Position numbers and translations under genes: made by a program. Under the pieces are notes generated by a model. It saw only the letters and a program-made list of their open reading frames with translations. It was not told where the DNA came from and ran no database searches. 64,000 bases of DNA from assembly GCA_938002015.1 (NCBI GenBank), contig CALLAU010000056.1, positions 14,995 to 78,994 of the forward strand, read 5' to 3'. The stretch is from an uncultured Bdellovibrionales bacterium (lineage in GTDB: Bacteria; Bdellovibrionota; Bdellovibrionia; Bdellovibrionales; UBA1609). This document shows positions 24,766-53,421 of the stretch, one piece after another (position 1 is the stretch's first letter; the number at the start of each line of letters is the position of its first letter).

Positions 24766-24935
24766 GCTTTTTATCTCTTTCTTAAAATTCTTTTAGTTCA
24801 CTTAGCTTATCGAGCTTTTAAGACTATATGCTTATCAGTCCTAGGTCTAGATACTTCTAAGACTGGACCAATTGCTGTCACAAAATGAAAAGTAAATTAA
24901 CAGTTTTACCGATAAAATCTTTAAGGAGAATACTT

Positions 24936-25985
24936 ATGGCTCAGATTGATGAACTCTTTAAGATCATGCTTCAACAAGATGCTTCAGACTTACACCTAAC
25001 TGCTGGTGAACCACCGTACTTTAGAGTAAATGGTGAGATGGTAAGAACCCAACATAAAATTCTTACTAGTGATGATTTAAAAGTTTTACTCTTTGAGATT
25101 CTATCAGAAAAACAGAAAAAACAGTTCATTGATAAATGGGAACTTGATTGTGCCTACTCTATTCCAAACGTTGGAAGGTTTAGATGTAATATCTTCATGC
25201 AAAGAAGAGGCTTAGGAGCTGTTTTTAGATCTATTCCAACAAAAATTCTCACACTTGAGCAACTCGGAATGCCTACATCTCTTACTCAACTAGCCGATGT
25301 AAAAAGAGGATTAATAGTTGTAACAGGTCCAACCGGTTCTGGTAAATCAACAACTCTCTCGGCTCTAATTAATCATATCAATGTAAATGAGAGTAAACAT
25401 ATTCTAACGGTTGAAGACCCTATAGAATTCGTACACAACAGTGCAAAAAGTTTAGTAAATCAAAGAGAAGTTTCAAGTCATACAAAATCTTTTCCAAATG
25501 CTCTAAAAGCAGCCCTTAGAGAAGACCCTGACATTATTCTCGTCGGAGAAATGAGAGATTTAGAAACTATTCAGCTTGCAATTTCAGCCGCCGAAACAGG
25601 GCATGTCGTTTTTGGAACCCTACACACTAATTCCGCAGTAAAGACTATTGATAGAATTATTGATGTTTTTCCTGAAGGACAGCAGGGGCAAATTCAGACA
25701 ATGCTTGCAGAAAGCCTACGAGGCGTTGTTGCACAAAGCCTGCTTCCTAGAGCTGACAAACCAGGTCGAGTTGCAGCTATTGAAGTTTTAATAAACAACG
25801 CAGCAGTTGCAAACCTCATTCGAGAAGGCAAGTCTTATCAAATTCCATCTGCTATGCAAACTGGAAGAGCTGAAGGAATGTTTACCCTTGATATGTACTT
25901 AAAAGAACTTGTAAGCAAAGGTCTTGTGACTCAAGAAGAGGCCTCCAAATACATGACTAAAAAGCTTAGAGCTTCTGCAGCTTAA
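24936..25985 (+). CDS. pilT: Type IV pilus retraction ATPase PilT/PilU family
   Basis: GPTGSGKST, EDPIE, ALREDPD..LVGEMRD, TLHT, AVANLIRE; AAGGAG SD before ATG 24936. Confidence 0.85.
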   Translation: MAQIDELFKIMLQQDASDLHLTAGEPPYFRVNGEMVRTQHKILTSDDLKVLLFEILSEKQKKQFIDKWELDCAYSIPNVGRFRCNIFMQRRGLGAVFRSIPTKILTLEQLGMPTSLTQLADVKRGLIVVTGPTGSGKSTTLSALINHINVNESKHILTVEDPIEFVHNSAKSLVNQREVSSHTKSFPNALKAALREDPDIILVGEMRDLETIQLAISAAETGHVVFGTLHTNSAVKTIDRIIDVFPEGQQGQIQTMLAESLRGVVAQSLLPRADKPGRVAAIEVLINNAAVANLIREGKSYQIPSAMQTGRAEGMFTLDMYLKELVSKGLVTQEEASKYMTKKLRASAA

Positions 25986-25998
25986 TCTAGATTATTTT

Positions 25999-26025
25999 TT
26001 GAACTGACAAAAAATGTCAGTTCAA
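25999..26025 (+). terminator. 11-bp inverted repeat after pilT (terminator and/or operator)
   Basis: TTGAACTGACA-AAAAA-TGTCAGTTCAA. Confidence 0.55.
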
Positions 26026-26065
26026 CAGTTTATTTCGACTAAAAAAAGCCTAAATTCAGAAAAAA

Positions 26066-26083
26066 CAGGCATAAAGAGTGCAA
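26066..26083 (+). promoter_or_regulatory. Putative sigma54 -24/-12 promoter
   Basis: CAGGCATAAAGAGTGCAA, GG-N10-GC spacing. Confidence 0.55.
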
Positions 26084-26093
26084 ACTCACCTAT

Positions 26094-29000
26094 GTGTATA
26101 GGCTCTTTCTTTTTATTCTACTTTTCTATGTTGTAGCTCCCCTACAAAGCTTTGCAGGAGTTACCCCTAACAACCTATCTACATCTGTAGAAAGACGAAT
26201 GAGCAGAGTTCCAGAATTTAAATTCATTCAAGAAGAGGCAAATAAGCTTGGGGTAAAAGTTTATCTTTTTGGCGGCACGGCTTCAGCTTTTGCGCATTAC
26301 GTAAGATGGGATTTAGAGCGAGAAGCAGGCGATGAAAAATACCAAGAAGAAAAGTTTGATTATGACTTTACAAACATTTACCGAGGCAACCAAGATCTAG
26401 ACATTGTTGTTGATGGTACTGCTGAGCAAGCAGCGACTTTGCAGCAAATTTTAAAAGAAAAATACCCACATTTTGTCGGTAGTAAAGAAGCTTGGGAAGT
26501 AAGGCTATTAAAGGCTCAAGTTAGCGATAAATTACCACTTCTTGATAACCCGGATTTTTTAAACCAGCACACGGATACAAACTCAACAGGAATGATTGCG
26601 GTTAACGCTGACCCTGGTGAAATTATTTTTAGAGATCTTTTTTCCTGGGAAAATCCTGACTCGAGATTTTTAAATGATGTGGCTGCTGGAAGAATTAAAT
26701 TTTTGTTTTCTGACAGTCATGAAACTACATCGCGTTTTAAAAATGGGCAAAACCCTCCAGTTTTTGCTGCAATAAGATATTTAGCAAAACTATCCCAGTA
26801 TGAAGTAGATGAAGCAGAAGGTGATTTAGAAATTATAAAAAAAATTATTGAAGGAACATACTGGGATGAGGTTAAAAATAATTCTTACGTAGTGCATAAG
26901 CTTGAGGAGTTTGGAAAAAAAGTTTTACTTAACGCGCCAGATTCTGAGTATGCGTGGAATTTGTTAGAGGAGACAGGTGTAAGAGGGCGTTTAATTGAAA
27001 TGGATGGCAATCGAATTAGTTCGGTTGAAAGTCTTTCGTGGTGGATGAGCAAGGAGCCTTTAAGAACAAAGCCGCTTGGTGAAGGAAATGGTAAGACAGC
27101 GGCAGAGATTTTTAAAAGTCATATGAATGAAGACGGAGAGATTGTTGTTGCGCATGAGACGAATTCTTTTGAAGCGTATGAGAATATCACGCGCTCCTCC
27201 CACGGCGCTGCCAATGCTTTTATTTCAAGAAGAGGTATTAGTGGTGAGGCTGCTGCTTGTGGCGATGGGTTTTACACTAGGCTTGGCTTAAAAGGTGCTC
27301 GAGGCACGAACTTAACAATTAGGTTTGTTTTAAATCCTGAGGCAAGAGAAGGAACTGATTTTATTTATGATGATGATTTCATAGTTATTAATAATAAAAG
27401 TGCTTTAAATAAAGTACCTGAAAACCTAAACGTAAATTTTCCAACTCTTCTTGCACTTTTGATAGAAGACTCCATTAAAAAATCAGACCAAGGAACTCTG
27501 ATTAAATTAGAGCGACGGTTTGAGCGACAAGAAGTTAGCACAGAGGACATAGATCAAGCATACAAAATTTTGATGGGCTCTCCTATAAGTAAACTCCCAG
27601 GAAGCCTTGCTCTAGAAATGTGGTTCGATCAACAAAACTCAACTCTACAAATGTATCATGGCATTTTCGATAAAATTATCGCCGAAGGCTCGAGCACTCA
27701 TTTGTTATGGATAGTTAATAATATTCTTGTACTACCAAATTGGAAAAATACAGATCAGTACCCACGACTTTATTTGAAATTTATTAAAGGGCTACTAAAC
27801 AGCACAAAAAAACCTTTATCGGCAACTATGAGTGCATTAAAGCACTGGTTTAGTCTGCCATATTCCCTTAACCTCTCCAATGATATATTGGAATATCTTA
27901 TAAAAGAAAGAAAGTATCAATGGATATTAAATAATATATTCGTTCACTCTAAATGGCTAAGTAACAGTTCTGGGAAAAAAATTCTGTTTCAGTTAATTGA
28001 GATTGCAGGCGAAGGTAGCACACTCAATTTTAAACTATTGACTTCTCAACCACATATAAAAACCAACTTACCAATACTAAAAAAACTCATAACATTTCCA
28101 AAAGGAGCTAGCGCAGTAATAACAAATGTACTTAGTGGTAGCAGAAATAATCAGCATAAAGAACTAATTCTTCACCTGATTAAAAGCACTACAGATCATA
28201 ATCTAGCGTTAATAGCAAAATACGTATTGAGCAATGATTTTTGGAGAACTGATGATGAAATCACTCTCACATACCTTGATCGACAGACTGAACTTATCAA
28301 AATGTCAAAAGCTTATATAAACGCACCTTCTCACAAATCAAATAGAGAAGTAATCTCAAGACTCGTCGATTTACAAAACCCCACCATCACCAAGTATCTA
28401 ATTGAGAATGTATTAAATCAAAGTGGATGGCATAAGTATCCTGAAATACTTCAAAAAACCTTCGATACCGAAGGCTCAATTGAGCTGGCTATTAAAAAAC
28501 TTTTCCGCCTAGAAACTTGGGCAAAGCAATTAGGTATAATACGATATATTATAAACTTGAATAATAAAAAATTTACCACTGCACTTATAAATAATGTATT
28601 TAATAGAAAACATTTTTTTAAAAATAAAGAATTTTATATGCAGTTAGTACGACAAAGTCGAGACTTTGATACCATAATAACTTCTAACATTCTAAGTTTA
28701 AATGATTTCCCTTATAGAGATGAAATCATTAAAATTTTTATTAATGAAAGGCGAGCACTGACTCAACTAATAACAGCCATTTCAAAAAGCAAAAACATCG
28801 ACTTTGTGATAAGTATGCTAAAAACTGGTGAAACTAAACTAGTAAACAGTATCATTAAGCAAACAAACTCTAATTTTTATGGAGACTTTGACTGGCTGAG
28901 AAAACGTCCAGAAATTATTCCATACTTCCTCTTAAACGAAAACAAACACACTCACAACCTTACAAGTCAACTTATGATAAACAACCCCGAACTACAAACA

Positions 29001-29855
29001 AATGAGAATATTCTTTTAATCTATAATGCAGGGTTAGCTAATAAAGATTACATCAACACACTTTTGTTTAATCTAGGAGAACGTTATACAGGAATCTCTA
29101 CCCCATTTAATTATCAAATTTTTGACAGTAAAATAGTAACTGAACTTATAAAATCAGGTGACATCGAAACTCTATCACTTCTTGTTCACAAGGTTCTAAT
29201 TCCACATCCAGAGCCTTGGAGCCAAGATATCTCATATATAGAGCAACTTAAAAAGAGAGCGCCTGGATCAAACCGCCTCCTTGTCAAACTTCTATCCCAA
29301 GATAGTTGGAGTAGTTACTTTTATATAATTGAAGAGATGCTCGAAGAAGGAGACATCACGCCATTACAAATTGTCACCAATATTAGCGATGTCGATTTTT
29401 GGCTAAACCACTTAGACCTATTAATTAAACTCATAAATCTTGATTTACCTTCAACTAATACTCTTTTATTAAATATAGTAGCTCAGTCCAATAAGTTTTC
29501 TGTCCATATAGAAAAAATCATAAACGAGTTTCTAAAAACAAAACGCCCAAGTGTTAAAAAGAACCTACTTGAAAAATTCACTCACTTTGAATATGGGATT
29601 AATTCAATTAGTACTAGTTACTTAGCCAACCACCCAGATTTATTTATAAAAGTTCTACTTTCATACGACAACGCTAAATTCGCAAATACATTGATAAACC
29701 ATCAAATATGGTCCACTCACCCAGTACTAGTAAGCTTCCTTCAAACTGACGTCGTTAATTATAATGATCTAATACATGAGCTTGAAGCTAGGGATTTTCG
29801 CGCATGGTATCAAAACTATAAAAACACAAACGCATGTAAGACTATACTTCAATGA
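26094..29855 (+). CDS. Secreted multidomain protein: class II nucleotidyltransferase-like, ADP-ribosyltransferase-like, helical repeats
   Basis: Signal peptide; VYLFGG...DLDIVV; AHET...GDGFY...DFIVIN; about 33-35-aa W-containing repeats; paralog at 50971..53421. Confidence 0.7.
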   Translation: MYRLFLFILLFYVVAPLQSFAGVTPNNLSTSVERRMSRVPEFKFIQEEANKLGVKVYLFGGTASAFAHYVRWDLEREAGDEKYQEEKFDYDFTNIYRGNQDLDIVVDGTAEQAATLQQILKEKYPHFVGSKEAWEVRLLKAQVSDKLPLLDNPDFLNQHTDTNSTGMIAVNADPGEIIFRDLFSWENPDSRFLNDVAAGRIKFLFSDSHETTSRFKNGQNPPVFAAIRYLAKLSQYEVDEAEGDLEIIKKIIEGTYWDEVKNNSYVVHKLEEFGKKVLLNAPDSEYAWNLLEETGVRGRLIEMDGNRISSVESLSWWMSKEPLRTKPLGEGNGKTAAEIFKSHMNEDGEIVVAHETNSFEAYENITRSSHGAANAFISRRGISGEAAACGDGFYTRLGLKGARGTNLTIRFVLNPEAREGTDFIYDDDFIVINNKSALNKVPENLNVNFPTLLALLIEDSIKKSDQGTLIKLERRFERQEVSTEDIDQAYKILMGSPISKLPGSLALEMWFDQQNSTLQMYHGIFDKIIAEGSSTHLLWIVNNILVLPNWKNTDQYPRLYLKFIKGLLNSTKKPLSATMSALKHWFSLPYSLNLSNDILEYLIKERKYQWILNNIFVHSKWLSNSSGKKILFQLIEIAGEGSTLNFKLLTSQPHIKTNLPILKKLITFPKGASAVITNVLSGSRNNQHKELILHLIKSTTDHNLALIAKYVLSNDFWRTDDEITLTYLDRQTELIKMSKAYINAPSHKSNREVISRLVDLQNPTITKYLIENVLNQSGWHKYPEILQKTFDTEGSIELAIKKLFRLETWAKQLGIIRYIINLNNKKFTTALINNVFNRKHFFKNKEFYMQLVRQSRDFDTIITSNILSLNDFPYRDEIIKIFINERRALTQLITAISKSKNIDFVISMLKTGETKLVNSIIKQTNSNFYGDFDWLRKRPEIIPYFLLNENKHTHNLTSQLMINNPELQTNENILLIYNAGLANKDYINTLLFNLGERYTGISTPFNYQIFDSKIVTELIKSGDIETLSLLVHKVLIPHPEPWSQDISYIEQLKKRAPGSNRLLVKLLSQDSWSSYFYIIEEMLEEGDITPLQIVTNISDVDFWLNHLDLLIKLINLDLPSTNTLLLNIVAQSNKFSVHIEKIINEFLKTKRPSVKKNLLEKFTHFEYGINSISTSYLANHPDLFIKVLLSYDNAKFANTLINHQIWSTHPVLVSFLQTDVVNYNDLIHELEARDFRAWYQNYKNTNACKTILQ

Positions 29856-30496
29856 AAAGGAATATTAACCAAAAAATAGATCACACATTACTTAAACAAG
29901 ATTCAAATACAAATGCGATAAAGAAGCTTTGCGATGAAGCCATTAAGCACTGTTTTTACTCTGTCTGCATACCACCATCATACGCTTCCTTTGCTTTTAA
30001 TATTCTTAAAAACTCACAAATAAAGATTTGTACTGTCGTAGGCTTTCCACTTGGCTATAGCACCCTTTCTACTAAAATTTATGAAATGAATACCATGACT
30101 GAACTAGGTGTTGATGAGATTGATGTCGTCTTGAATATTGGAAACATCAAAAATACAAACTGGGATTTAGTTGAAGAAGAAATTAAGTGCCTGTCTAAAA
30201 ATAAAGGCAAAACTATATTAAAACTTATAATTGAATCCGGAGTTCTTGAGATATCTGAGATAATTCAAGTTTGTAAAATAACAAATAAATACCCTATAGA
30301 TTTCCTCAAAACATCCACTGGTTTTGCAAAAACAGGAGCCACAGTGGAAGCTGTCACCACAATGCGTGAAAATCTACGACCTGATATAAAAATAAAGGCT
30401 AGTGGAGGCATTAAGACGATTCAAGATGCTGAAAAATTCATTAAAATTGGAGCCGATAGACTTGGCTGCAGTTCAAGTGTAGAAATTATCTCATGA
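29852..30496 (+). CDS. deoC: Deoxyribose-phosphate aldolase
   Basis: IDHTLLK, VVGFPLG, KLIIE, FLKTSTGF, KASGGI. Confidence 0.96.
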   Translation: MKRNINQKIDHTLLKQDSNTNAIKKLCDEAIKHCFYSVCIPPSYASFAFNILKNSQIKICTVVGFPLGYSTLSTKIYEMNTMTELGVDEIDVVLNIGNIKNTNWDLVEEEIKCLSKNKGKTILKLIIESGVLEISEIIQVCKITNKYPIDFLKTSTGFAKTGATVEAVTTMRENLRPDIKIKASGGIKTIQDAEKFIKIGADRLGCSSSVEIIS

Positions 30497-50950: not shown

Positions 50951-50982
50951 ATACTGAACTAACTGTAAAGTTAGTTCAGTAT
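50951..50982. terminator. 13-bp perfect inverted repeat between convergent genes
   Basis: ATACTGAACTAAC-TGTAAA-GTTAGTTCAGTAT. Confidence 0.65.
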
Positions 50983-53421
50983 TCCCCTACAAGTAGGAAC
51001 AGGGCCTCTTTTAATTTCATTAATAAAATTCCCACTTAAGTTATTAACAGATGAGTGTACACTGATCACGCTACCACCTACCATTGCAGAAACAAGTGAC
51101 ACACCTACAGCTAAACCTTCACTAGCAGCCCATATTGAATTATCCATACCACCATACGTATAAAAACCAAGACCAGTTAGAACAGACGGAGCAAGTACCA
51201 AAGCGCTCATCCCTCTGCTTTTCCATTTTCTTTTTCTGATTTTAAGCTTCAACCTACTCTGCATGCTAGCCACTTCATATGCAGACGCTATTGTATTCTT
51301 AGTAATAAATTCACCTTTAAGTTTATGCTCTCTTTTAGTTTCTTTTCTATCTAGTACAGCAGGATTTAAAAGAGTTTCCTTATGTATCCAAAACCCGTTA
51401 TTACCAATGATGTGATTAAACAGTAGTTCATCTAAACTACTTTCTAATTCTAATGGTAAATTACTATATGCATTTACCAAGGCCAACAGAATCCCCCTCG
51501 ACTCAAAGCTTGCAATTTTGTATTCAGGTCGAGTTTCTTCATTAAAATCTCTCTCAATTGCTATAAAATCAACTGTTTTAAAGGCCTTAGCCAGGTATGG
51601 AACAAGAGCTGGATCTACTTCTGTATTTAAAAAAATCTCTAATAAATTCTGACTGTAATGCAACTCTCTTGAGTGTTTATATAAAACTCCACTTCGTCTA
51701 ATCTTATTTTTTCCCACTTCACTAAAAGAATCTAAATTAACTATTTGATCTAACAGTGATGGATTAAATTTCCATGCTGTATTTAAAACAACATTATCTA
51801 AAATAACAGAGATATGCTTTCTTTGCCTCAATAAGTTTTGAACAACTTCAGGAAAATTCTGAGAGCACTTTAAAGAAAACCAAGCGGTGTAAAGAGTTTT
51901 ATTCTGACTCTCCTCTGAAAGATTTAAAATTTTATTTTTTTGTGCTTCACAATTTAATATAGTTATACTTGCATCTCGTGAGAATTTTCTACTTAACCTC
52001 TCAATGTAACCTATGTTGTATGATGCAATTCCCCCCTCGATCAATAAATCAAAATATTCATCAAGCGAAATACTTAATGAATCATACATCACTTCTATGG
52101 CAGACTTATTTTTAATAAGGACTACATCACCAAAAACTTCAAAATCACTTCCTTCTCGAGCCTCGGGCTTTATGCGAAAATTAATTGTTATATTAGTTCC
52201 ACGAGCTCCTCTTTGCCCTTTTAAAGTATAAAAACCTTCACCATGAATTGCCGATTCACCGACAAAACCCTGTCTTGAAGTAAAAACATTAGCTTTTCCT
52301 TCTGATGATTTTATAATACTCTCATAAGAGTCAAATGAGTTAGTTTCATGAGCTAACATATCAAGACTCAGTTCCAAAGCCGTTACTCCAGTCCCTTGGC
52401 CAACCTTAAATGATGGAAGAGGGATTCTACTCATCCACCAAGATACAGATTTTATCTCATCAACGTTATTACCATCGATTTCAATAAGCTTTTCTCTTAA
52501 ACCTAAGTCTCTTAATATTTTATGTGCAAACTCTAAGTTAGGAGAGTTGAGAAGGGCTTTTAAGCCAAACTCTAAAGCTTTTTTCTCACTATAATTATTT
52601 AAATCACCCACACTAACTCTTTGAATTATTTTACGAATCAATTCAAGATCACCTTCTGAAGCTGTTAGCTCAAACTGAGTTAATTTTGCGATGAATCTTA
52701 TTGCCGCAAGTATTGGAGGATTATTCCCTTGACGGTATCTTTTTGTACTTTCATGTCTATCAGAAAAATAAAATGAAATTCTCTTATCAGCGACATCGTT
52801 TAAGAACTGGTTGTCTACATTATTCCAGTCTTTTAAATCACGAACTATACTTGTTGAACTAGTATCTGTAATTTCAACCAAACCTATAGAGTTTGAATCT
52901 GAGTGTTGATTTAAAAATTCTGGACTAGCTAGCAAAGCTTCCTTATCTCCCATTTTTTGTCTTAATAGCCTTACCTCCCAGTCTTGCCTATCTCCAATAA
53001 AGTTTGGATATTTTGCAAGCAAAGCCCCTGTAAGCCTAGAGGCAACTTCAGAATCTGCATCAACCACAATATCTAAATCCTGATTTCCTCTATAAATATT
53101 TGTAAAATCATAATCAAAGCGCGCATCTTGAAAAAGTCCTCTACCTTCTCTTCGCTCAATATCAAGTCGAACATAGTGAAGGTATGAAGCTGCAGTACCT
53201 CCAAAAAGATATACTGAAACACCCAACTTCTTGGCCTCTTGTCTTATAAATTCAAACTCAGGAACTCGTAACAAATTTGCCTCAGCACTTTTAAGCAAAT
53301 CTGCAGCTTTAACTTGAGCATCGGCGTTTTGAATAAATACAACTAAAGAAAAATAAATAGAAAACCATTTCATAAGTATGACTATTTTTTGCATCAATTT
53401 GGACATGACTTCAAATTGCAT
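50971..53421 (-). CDS. Secreted nucleotidyltransferase-like plus ADP-ribosyltransferase-like protein, paralog of 26094..29855 (true start probably 53406 or downstream)
   Basis: Shares FDYDFTNIYRGNQDLDIVVD, AHETNSF and G.GFYT with the 1253-aa protein; C-terminal hydrophobic helices. Confidence 0.7.
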   Translation of the reverse strand: MQFEVMSKLMQKIVILMKWFSIYFSLVVFIQNADAQVKAADLLKSAEANLLRVPEFEFIRQEAKKLGVSVYLFGGTAASYLHYVRLDIERREGRGLFQDARFDYDFTNIYRGNQDLDIVVDADSEVASRLTGALLAKYPNFIGDRQDWEVRLLRQKMGDKEALLASPEFLNQHSDSNSIGLVEITDTSSTSIVRDLKDWNNVDNQFLNDVADKRISFYFSDRHESTKRYRQGNNPPILAAIRFIAKLTQFELTASEGDLELIRKIIQRVSVGDLNNYSEKKALEFGLKALLNSPNLEFAHKILRDLGLREKLIEIDGNNVDEIKSVSWWMSRIPLPSFKVGQGTGVTALELSLDMLAHETNSFDSYESIIKSSEGKANVFTSRQGFVGESAIHGEGFYTLKGQRGARGTNITINFRIKPEAREGSDFEVFGDVVLIKNKSAIEVMYDSLSISLDEYFDLLIEGGIASYNIGYIERLSRKFSRDASITILNCEAQKNKILNLSEESQNKTLYTAWFSLKCSQNFPEVVQNLLRQRKHISVILDNVVLNTAWKFNPSLLDQIVNLDSFSEVGKNKIRRSGVLYKHSRELHYSQNLLEIFLNTEVDPALVPYLAKAFKTVDFIAIERDFNEETRPEYKIASFESRGILLALVNAYSNLPLELESSLDELLFNHIIGNNGFWIHKETLLNPAVLDRKETKREHKLKGEFITKNTIASAYEVASMQSRLKLKIRKRKWKSRGMSALVLAPSVLTGLGFYTYGGMDNSIWAASEGLAVGVSLVSAMVGGSVISVHSSVNNLSGNFINEIKRGPVPTCRGILN

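Follow-up and report, generated by a model that had tools for sequence, protein, structure and literature searches.

The 64,000-nucleotide stretch of contig CALLAU010000056.1 analysed here (the window), from an uncultured Bdellovibrionales bacterium, carries a gene whose product of 1253 amino acids (aa) we read as a modular, exported two-enzyme effector acting in prey, with a head built from a nucleotidyltransferase and a PARP-like domain, a variable tail and a C-terminal Cys tag. We judge this reading slightly better than evenly poised, and action on prey would be plausible. The whole protein had no match in Pfam (E<=1), NCBIfam or PDB sequences, nor in the anti-phage defence models of PADLOC. 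Searches of the literature and of Pfam/NCBIfam yielded no description or record of its family, and neither the searched family libraries nor the searched papers showed the two nucleotide-using enzyme folds in one protein; the family is one not previously described. We report its architecture, fold relations, conservation and copy number, and the insertion of this copy into its locus. In window coordinates the parts of the gene are:

26094..29855, forward strand: whole open reading frame (ORF), 1253 aa, with GTG start and TGA stop (29853-29855)
26094..26156, forward strand: Sec-type signal peptide, residues 1-21, probable cleavage between SFA and GV, by inspection
26199..27083, forward strand: class-II nucleotidyltransferase-like head and neck, residues ~36-330, from AlphaFold2, Foldseek, hhalign and invariant columns
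27126..27428, forward strand: beta-rich domain, divergent PARP-like ADP-ribosyltransferase (ART) fold, residues ~345-445, from AlphaFold2, hhalign and conservation
27429..27563, forward strand: linker containing a conserved helix (SDxGxLxKLxRR), where the constant head passes into the variable tail, from the consensus and a drop in identity
27564..29795, forward strand: hypervariable alpha-helical repeat tail, ~30-aa units with a W...PE-type core, from profile matches and repeat spacing
29796..29852, forward strand: C-terminal tag, FxxW, ~10 aa, a lone Cys (C1248), then KTILQ, present in all complete paralogues

An earlier note, made from the letters of this DNA, had placed a secreted nucleotidyltransferase-ART protein at 26094-27430 (445 aa). 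The motifs it quoted are all read in frame 1 of that interval. The interval covers the constant head only; the ORF reaches 29855, and the end coordinate given was that of the constant module, not of the gene. The tail and Cys tag, which make up two thirds of the protein, did not figure in that note, and neither did the ~40-copy expansion or the constant pairing of head and beta domain.

The head is probably an active, divergent class-II-type nucleotidyltransferase. An AlphaFold2 model of residues 1-445, built with 42 homologues as the alignment, reached a predicted local distance difference test score (pLDDT) of 91.9 and a predicted template modelling score (pTM) of 0.88, and contains a Pol-beta-like head followed by a helical neck. 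In a Foldseek search of the PDB its 37 best matches were all class-II enzymes (E 2.8e-5 to 2.5e-2, template modelling (TM) scores 0.30-0.41, ~280 columns), among them 3h39, 5hc9, 4wby, 1vfg, 1miv and 3aql (E 3e-5 to 1e-2). These are Thermotoga, Aquifex, Bacillus and psychrophilic CCA-adding or A-adding enzymes and an E. coli-type poly(A) polymerase, so that the class-II assignment first made from motifs is borne out at the level of the predicted fold. The modelled neck is followed by a six-strand beta domain where the tRNA-binding helical body and tail of such enzymes are missing, and the Foldseek alignments end at ~280-300 columns. The only PF01743 match in the genome is a separate, canonical housekeeping PolyA_pol gene (contig C95).

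Alignment of the family profile with 24 housekeeping PolyA_pol enzymes of relatives was collinear over 297 columns (hhalign 9.5%, E 0.0034); one housekeeping CCA sequence by itself was not enough to produce a signal, which required the 24-sequence alignment. It places the metal-binding and glycine motifs as follows:

26271-26276, forward strand: G60-G61, on the GG motif
26394-26402, forward strand: D101xD103, on the DxD motif
26496-26498, forward strand: E135, the third carboxylate, on the E of the (E)IATFR strand

An insert of ~38 aa lies between GG and DxD. The conserved R228 falls on the neck helix, and R180-D181 on motif B (RRD), with D181 invariant and a single Arg only. Motif B had been assigned earlier to QHTDTNS, as the RDFTIN position, and the profile alignment moves it from there. 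In class-II enzymes RRD serves ribose recognition and motif D (EDxxR) is the amino-acid template for the incoming nucleotide. Motif D is not kept here: N217-G218-Q219...P222 occupy the E-D-x-x-R positions. The nucleotide and acceptor specificity of the head cannot be read from known rules. When this protein was aligned with 42 homologues (46-80% identity), G60, G61, T62, D101, D103, E135, R137, Q158, D161, S164, G166, D181, D195 and R228 of the head were invariant among the 43 sequences, as were H354, E355, T356, G390, G392, F393, Y394, D422 and F423 of the beta domain, and the motifs listed in the earlier note are conserved far above chance. It is the intact triad, together with these invariant motifs and the fold match, that makes an active class-II-type enzyme probable.

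The beta domain is, in our view, probably an ART by fold and ancestry; that it retains ART catalysis is at best an even bet. The assignment is made because a two-link chain of alignments through a sister family and weak structural matches agree. The sister family came from a Pfam PARP scan of 401 Bdellovibrionota genomes, in which several matches lay in long ORFs. One of these, L062 (268-2814, forward strand, 848 aa), encodes a signal peptide, GGTVR, ~48 aa, GSDLD, ~255 aa and then LYHGT...GRGGYTT...VLVQN, and continues with a HEAT tail and a C-terminal Cys. The sister set comprised L062, its few homologues (P0239-P0246) and four further ORFs (L058, L060, L063, L066), with Pfam PARP matches between E 7e-7 and 9e-4, of which one passes the curated threshold. 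These unannotated proteins give one match per genome in the sample, in other Bdellovibrionota and not in the genome of the window. The sister family resembles ours in domain order, the long GG-DxD insert, the distance from DxD to His (~253-255 aa), the helical-repeat tail and the terminal Cys; unlike ours, it has kept a canonical HGT, and its head lies nearer to CCA enzymes (hhalign 44.8%). The links of the chain, all from hhalign, are:

our whole N-terminal module against the sister module: 89.1%, E 2.3e-6, 363-381 columns, collinear; reversed control 0.07%
our beta domain against the sister beta domain: 90.5%, E 1.4e-6, 86 columns; reversed control 0.35%
sister beta domain against true PARP domains (Pfam E 4e-27 and 5e-13): 95.0-96.4%, E 4e-8 to 1e-9, 48-57 columns

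Aligning the two beta domains puts H354 opposite the HGT His and Y394 opposite the GxGxY Tyr (GrGxYT). The positions that matter for the ART assignment are:

27153-27155, forward strand: H354, the PARP His position
27273-27275, forward strand: Y394, the PARP Tyr position
27357-27359, forward strand: D422, a conserved acidic residue
27375-27377, forward strand: D428, variable, the catalytic acid proposed in the earlier note

H354 is invariant and T356 at least 90% conserved, and a G-x-G-x-Y motif is present with G390, G392 and Y394 invariant or nearly so. Residues of the domain that are invariant or nearly invariant are H354, Y394, N374, S378, R379, E385, D422 and N434. D428 does not hold as the terminal acidic residue, its column being variable among paralogues; the acidic residue that is conserved, D422, sits a hairpin before it. 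The PARP-like assignment made earlier thus stands on the invariant His and Tyr and on homology through the sister family, and has no direct significant match behind it. An isolated model of the domain (pLDDT 80.8) had PARP14 as its top PDB match in Foldseek (3smj_B, E 2.9, query TM score (TMq) 0.36), with a second PARP14 entry and Tse6 also in the list, all non-significant. Against the viral structures of BFVD the best E was 0.17 and a giant-virus NAD+ ART was matched with TMq 0.44 and E 6.8, none of these being significant.

Head and beta domain form one integrated unit. They occur together in 232 of 237 retrieved family proteins, the other five being four fragments and one spurious match to a repeat protein. 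A search for stand-alone beta domains returned family-member fragments only, and an exhaustive search with the beta-domain profile showed no other architecture among the 150 matches listed. Loop 367-391 is modelled with confidence in the context of the head and not in the isolated domain. As a separate observation, a giant metagenomic repeat protein (2769 aa) has 16 matches to positions 60-102 of the beta-domain profile, the GxGxYT...G..G hairpin, probably a compositional or repeat artefact and not homology.

Export from the cytoplasm is supported by inspection of the N-terminus, where a brief n-region leads into a hydrophobic core of 12 residues and then the probable SFA-GV cleavage site. All 32 paralogue N-termini share this n-h-c layout, with cleavage sites of the type ALA before QV or AFA before EV, and a strongly hydrophobic segment lies at the N-terminus in 29 of 31 wider homologues; the signal peptide proposed earlier is consistent with all three lines. 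The public gene call (1218 aa) starts at M36, at window position 26199 instead of 26094, and so drops the signal peptide. The conservation of the hydrophobic segment upstream of M36 in paralogues argues for the GTG at 26094 as the start. Start truncation of the kind seen in the public call may also affect other family members in databases.

The gene is one of many. Its first 445 aa match 41 places in its own 2.82-Mb, 99-contig genome. The ORF pieces number 40; contig ends truncate many of them, and 21 span the full length from head to C-terminus, which suggests ~30-40 family genes, or roughly 4% of the 2.8-Mb genome. Heads are 80-85% identical to those of their nearest paralogues, whereas the tails of the same pairs are ~20% identical; along the protein, identity to nearest paralogues drops from 86-90% to about 15-20% between residues ~435 and 480. 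Distribution across the phylum is patchy. The family was matched in 21 of the 401 sampled Bdellovibrionota genomes (17 of 203 genera), and other, independent expansions reach 23-39 candidates per genome. A scan of genomes of 185,579 species gave 134 loci, of which the best 80 were all in uncultured Bdellovibrionota-type metagenome-assembled genomes (MAGs) belonging to Bacteriovoracaceae, Pseudobdellovibrionaceae, Bdellovibrionales and groundwater 'Deltaproteobacteria'. Among 1.84 billion representatives the beta-domain profile retrieved 608 clusters at 50% identity.

The site of the present copy adds to this pattern. Among members of the same genus, four genomes have pilT and deoC as direct neighbours, ~57 nucleotides apart; here the 3.76-kb family gene separates them (window 24885-30496), and the copy at 26094 is therefore, as judged from gene order, a lineage-specific and recent insertion. 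Another genome that carries the family elsewhere likewise has no copy at the pilT/deoC site. Copy expansion, constant heads against divergent tails, patchy distribution and insertion are, on this comparative evidence, the signature of an arms race.

The tail is 808 aa long and all-helical, with degenerate units spaced 29-33 aa apart. Among PDB sequences the family profile matched only repeat proteins (designed ankyrin and helical repeat proteins), by way of the tail, and the C-termini of other members are of HEAT, ankyrin or FGE-sulfatase type. Complete copies all end in an aromatic-x-x-Trp followed by a lone Cys-x-x-[ILV]-L and 0-6 further residues. Conservation of the Cys across the family is 90% or more, and in other MAGs a short amphipathic helix follows it. 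A CaaX box was rejected, the Cys lying 5-13 residues from the end. The same ending was found on 15 non-family ORFs of the genome, against 0-4 at internal control offsets (about 2 expected). Nearly all of these ORFs have signal peptides, giving about 13 such proteins (L068-L078; contigs C3, C7, C19, C20, C29, C34, C39, C70, C71, C76 and C96), which include a double AAA+ ATPase (L069), an FAD-type oxidoreductase, a thioredoxin-like protein and a Big-domain protein. The tag may mark a sorting route not described so far.

The double AAA+ ATPase lies directly upstream of another family copy (C7:153532), and a remote metagenomic member of 2327 aa (P0223) joins three AAA+ domains and an FtsH-type M41 peptidase to the head-beta unit and a C-terminal FGE-sulfatase domain. 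An AAA+ ATPase as obligate partner was nevertheless rejected despite this one fusion, being adjacent in 3 of 79 other loci. Those 79 loci show no recurrent partner apart from further family copies and the rare AAA+ gene.

We infer catalytic activity and targets from this architecture as follows. The Sec signal peptide would take the protein out of the cytoplasm. The constant head (residues ~36-445) would be the warhead, with the metal triad D101, D103 and E135 intact in the nucleotidyltransferase and a PARP-like domain packed against it in which the NAD-site His and Tyr (H354 and Y394) are kept and the third position is variable. The ~800-aa helical-repeat tail would most likely select the target or location, and the lone-Cys tag would be a sorting or attachment signal common to other exported proteins, some of them ATP-requiring. 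Nucleotidyltransferases, AAA+ ATPases and ARTs require nucleoside triphosphates (NTPs) or NAD+, which are scarce outside the cytoplasm, so that the tagged proteins most likely act inside prey. The ~30-40 secreted effectors would then be an arsenal working in a compartment that holds NTPs and NAD+, namely the prey cell. In that compartment the head would extend RNA 3' ends with nucleotides, most obviously those of tRNA, and/or transfer ADP-ribose to RNA ends or to proteins. Analogy with CCA enzymes and with the MenT and T6SS ART toxins puts tRNA and RNA 3' ends first among the candidate substrates; nucleotidylation or ADP-ribosylation of proteins would be the alternative.

A more specific version of this scheme would have both domains act jointly, as a composite warhead, on one and the same end of an RNA, for example by lengthening the 3' ends of tRNA, ADP-ribosylating them, or both. 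The Cys tag would mark a new export route into prey that is shared with AAA+ cargo, and the 30-40 tails would each confer another target. We give this version little credence at present.

Several results weigh against a two-enzyme effector, some bearing on its chemistry and others on its delivery. Pfam PolyA_pol (PF01743) does not match the protein (E<=1), and at 9.5% in hhalign the sequence-level link of the head to PolyA_pol is weak. For the beta domain, a HMMER profile gave noise only against PDB sequences and nothing significant against the PARP-like ORFs of the phylum, every family member searched against Pfam at E<=10 gave noise only, and Pfam PARP, Tox-ART-HYD1 and Tox-ART-HYE1 run on its own genome gave no match to the domain. 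(A single weak Tox-ART-HYE1 match sits in the nucleotidyltransferase head and was discarded as noise.) Early hhalign attempts with badly cut groups gave 5-22%, and direct comparison of our beta domain with true PARP gave 0.2-0.5% (E 0.11-0.25, 9-36 columns). The middle Gly of HG[ST] is replaced, by E here and by A, D or S in other members, and the D428 column, which is the Glu-equivalent, holds D, G, N, K, T, L or A even among paralogues of the same genome. With this Gly replaced and the Glu-equivalent variable, the beta domain could be an inactive binder of NAD or nucleotide. On the side of delivery, a Sec signal by itself takes a protein no further than the periplasm, a compartment poor in NTPs and NAD+, and no delivery machinery was identified; export beyond the periplasm is something we infer. 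An immunity-like partner gene was not found, no systematic search for one having been made.

The points on the beta domain are the ground of the best-surviving alternative, which we regard as possible but on the unlikely side: only the nucleotidyltransferase would be an enzyme, and the beta domain a degenerate ART remnant that replaces the CCA body and tail as a substrate- or nucleotide-binding lobe. The obligate pairing of the two domains, a beta-domain loop ordered only beside the head, the lost Gly and variable Glu-equivalent, and the lack of any ART profile matching the domain directly all fit such a lobe. However, the many polar residues that are invariant across hundreds of sequences are more than a passive lobe needs, and PARPs of the H-Y-variable type are, as is generally known, active mono-ARTs.

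The delivery points bear on a second alternative, in which the proteins are not injected at all. They would be periplasmic or surface proteins anchored or cross-linked through the C-terminal Cys, with tails that recognise the prey surface or envelope and a head that uses extracellular or periplasmic nucleotides. The Sec signal peptide is the only export signal seen, the Cys tag also occurs on thioredoxin-like and Big-domain proteins, which are typical envelope proteins, and variable repeat tails are typical of recognition proteins. Yet the nucleotidyltransferase, AAA+ ATPase and FAD oxidoreductase cargo require NTPs or cofactors normally lacking outside the cytoplasm, and the catalytic residues are strictly kept; we consider an anchored role distinctly unlikely.

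Targets in eukaryotic hosts or grazers (protists) instead of bacterial prey are less probable again, and we view them as a slim prospect. The PARP-like domain, the HEAT and ankyrin tails, faint RasGEF matches in some members and a Foldseek similarity of the head to TENT5/FAM46C could all be taken that way. All carriers, however, are MAGs of Bdellovibrionota, a phylum whose known prey is bacterial, the distance of the Cys from the end sets the tag apart from a CaaX box, and there is no evidence of a eukaryote-associated lifestyle. A variant housekeeping CCA-adding enzyme or poly(A) polymerase, for which the fold match to class-II nucleotidyltransferases would speak, is effectively refuted by the genome's separate canonical PolyA_pol gene, the ~40 copies with signal peptides and no body or tail domains, the loss of motif D, and a family absent from most relatives and here inserted in a conserved operon.

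The remaining features of the locus and the window are set around the effector gene. A PilT-type ATPase gene lies directly upstream, an RNase G gene on the minus strand is another neighbour, and deoC-deoA-deoD-like genes follow directly downstream, the TGA stop of the 1253-aa ORF sharing an ATGA with the ATG of deoC. The terminator-like hairpin directly after pilT suggests that the inserted gene has its own promoter. The second family copy has a head 51% identical to that of the first, an unrelated tail, the same signal-peptide layout and the Cys tag (ending CRGILN).

25999..26025, forward strand: terminator-like hairpin after pilT and upstream of the gene, perfect 11-bp stem, then a T-rich tail
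50971..53421, reverse strand: second family copy in the window

Apart from hydrolases, little is known of the means by which predatory bacteria disable and take apart prey while remaining outside its cytoplasm. If the head modifies prey RNA or proteins, the family would represent a new class of effector and a natural library of binding tails, made of ~30-aa repeats, on one enzyme, and the shared Cys tag may indicate how such proteins are sorted. Hundreds of family members occur in uncultured Bdellovibrionota, and the sister family provides a sequence bridge that lets these proteins be annotated instead of being left hypothetical.

Among known systems, the head is closest to class-II tRNA nucleotidyltransferases and PAP I, with which it shares a head-and-neck fold of ~280 residues, hGG, DxD, the E135 carboxylate, R-D at motif B and the neck Arg. 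Unlike those enzymes, ours has no Pfam match, carries the ~38-aa insert, has EDxxR replaced (N217-G218...P222), bears a beta-rich domain in place of body and tail, has a signal peptide and exists in ~40 copies. The beta domain compares with ARTs of the H-Y-E clade, in which H-x-[ST] likewise ends strand 1, G-x-G-[FL]-Y follows 40 residues on, and a hydrophobic strand comes next, in our protein with an Asp before it. It differs in the replaced Gly of HG[ST], the unconserved third position, a length of ~100 aa and in never occurring without the nucleotidyltransferase head. The clade includes the H-Y-variable mono-ART PARPs, and PARP14 is the top Foldseek match of our domain. The H-Y-[DE] toxin clade, with the Tox-ART-PARP/HYD domains of polymorphic toxins, is described in PMC3482391.

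Toxins of the same two chemical classes disable translation in another cell and offer a model for the head. MenT is reported to extend tRNA acceptor stems (PMC10435456), and a type VI secretion system (T6SS) Rhs ART toxin to modify tRNA (PMC13617354). MenT belongs to a different nucleotidyltransferase family (DUF1814-type) from ours, and both kinds of toxin, unlike ours, come with cognate antitoxin or immunity genes and are delivered by other routes; the likeness is one of analogy.

Polymorphic toxins provide the closest parallel in organisation. No immunity gene (not systematically searched for), Rhs, PAAR or similar delivery domain was seen in our family, and the gene arrangement differs from theirs, the neighbours here being pilT and deoC. 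Both are nonetheless multi-copy, modular, recombining secreted proteins that combine constant with hypervariable parts, and it is their polarity that is reversed: in our family the N-terminal enzyme is constant and the C-terminal, non-enzymatic repeat is what varies.

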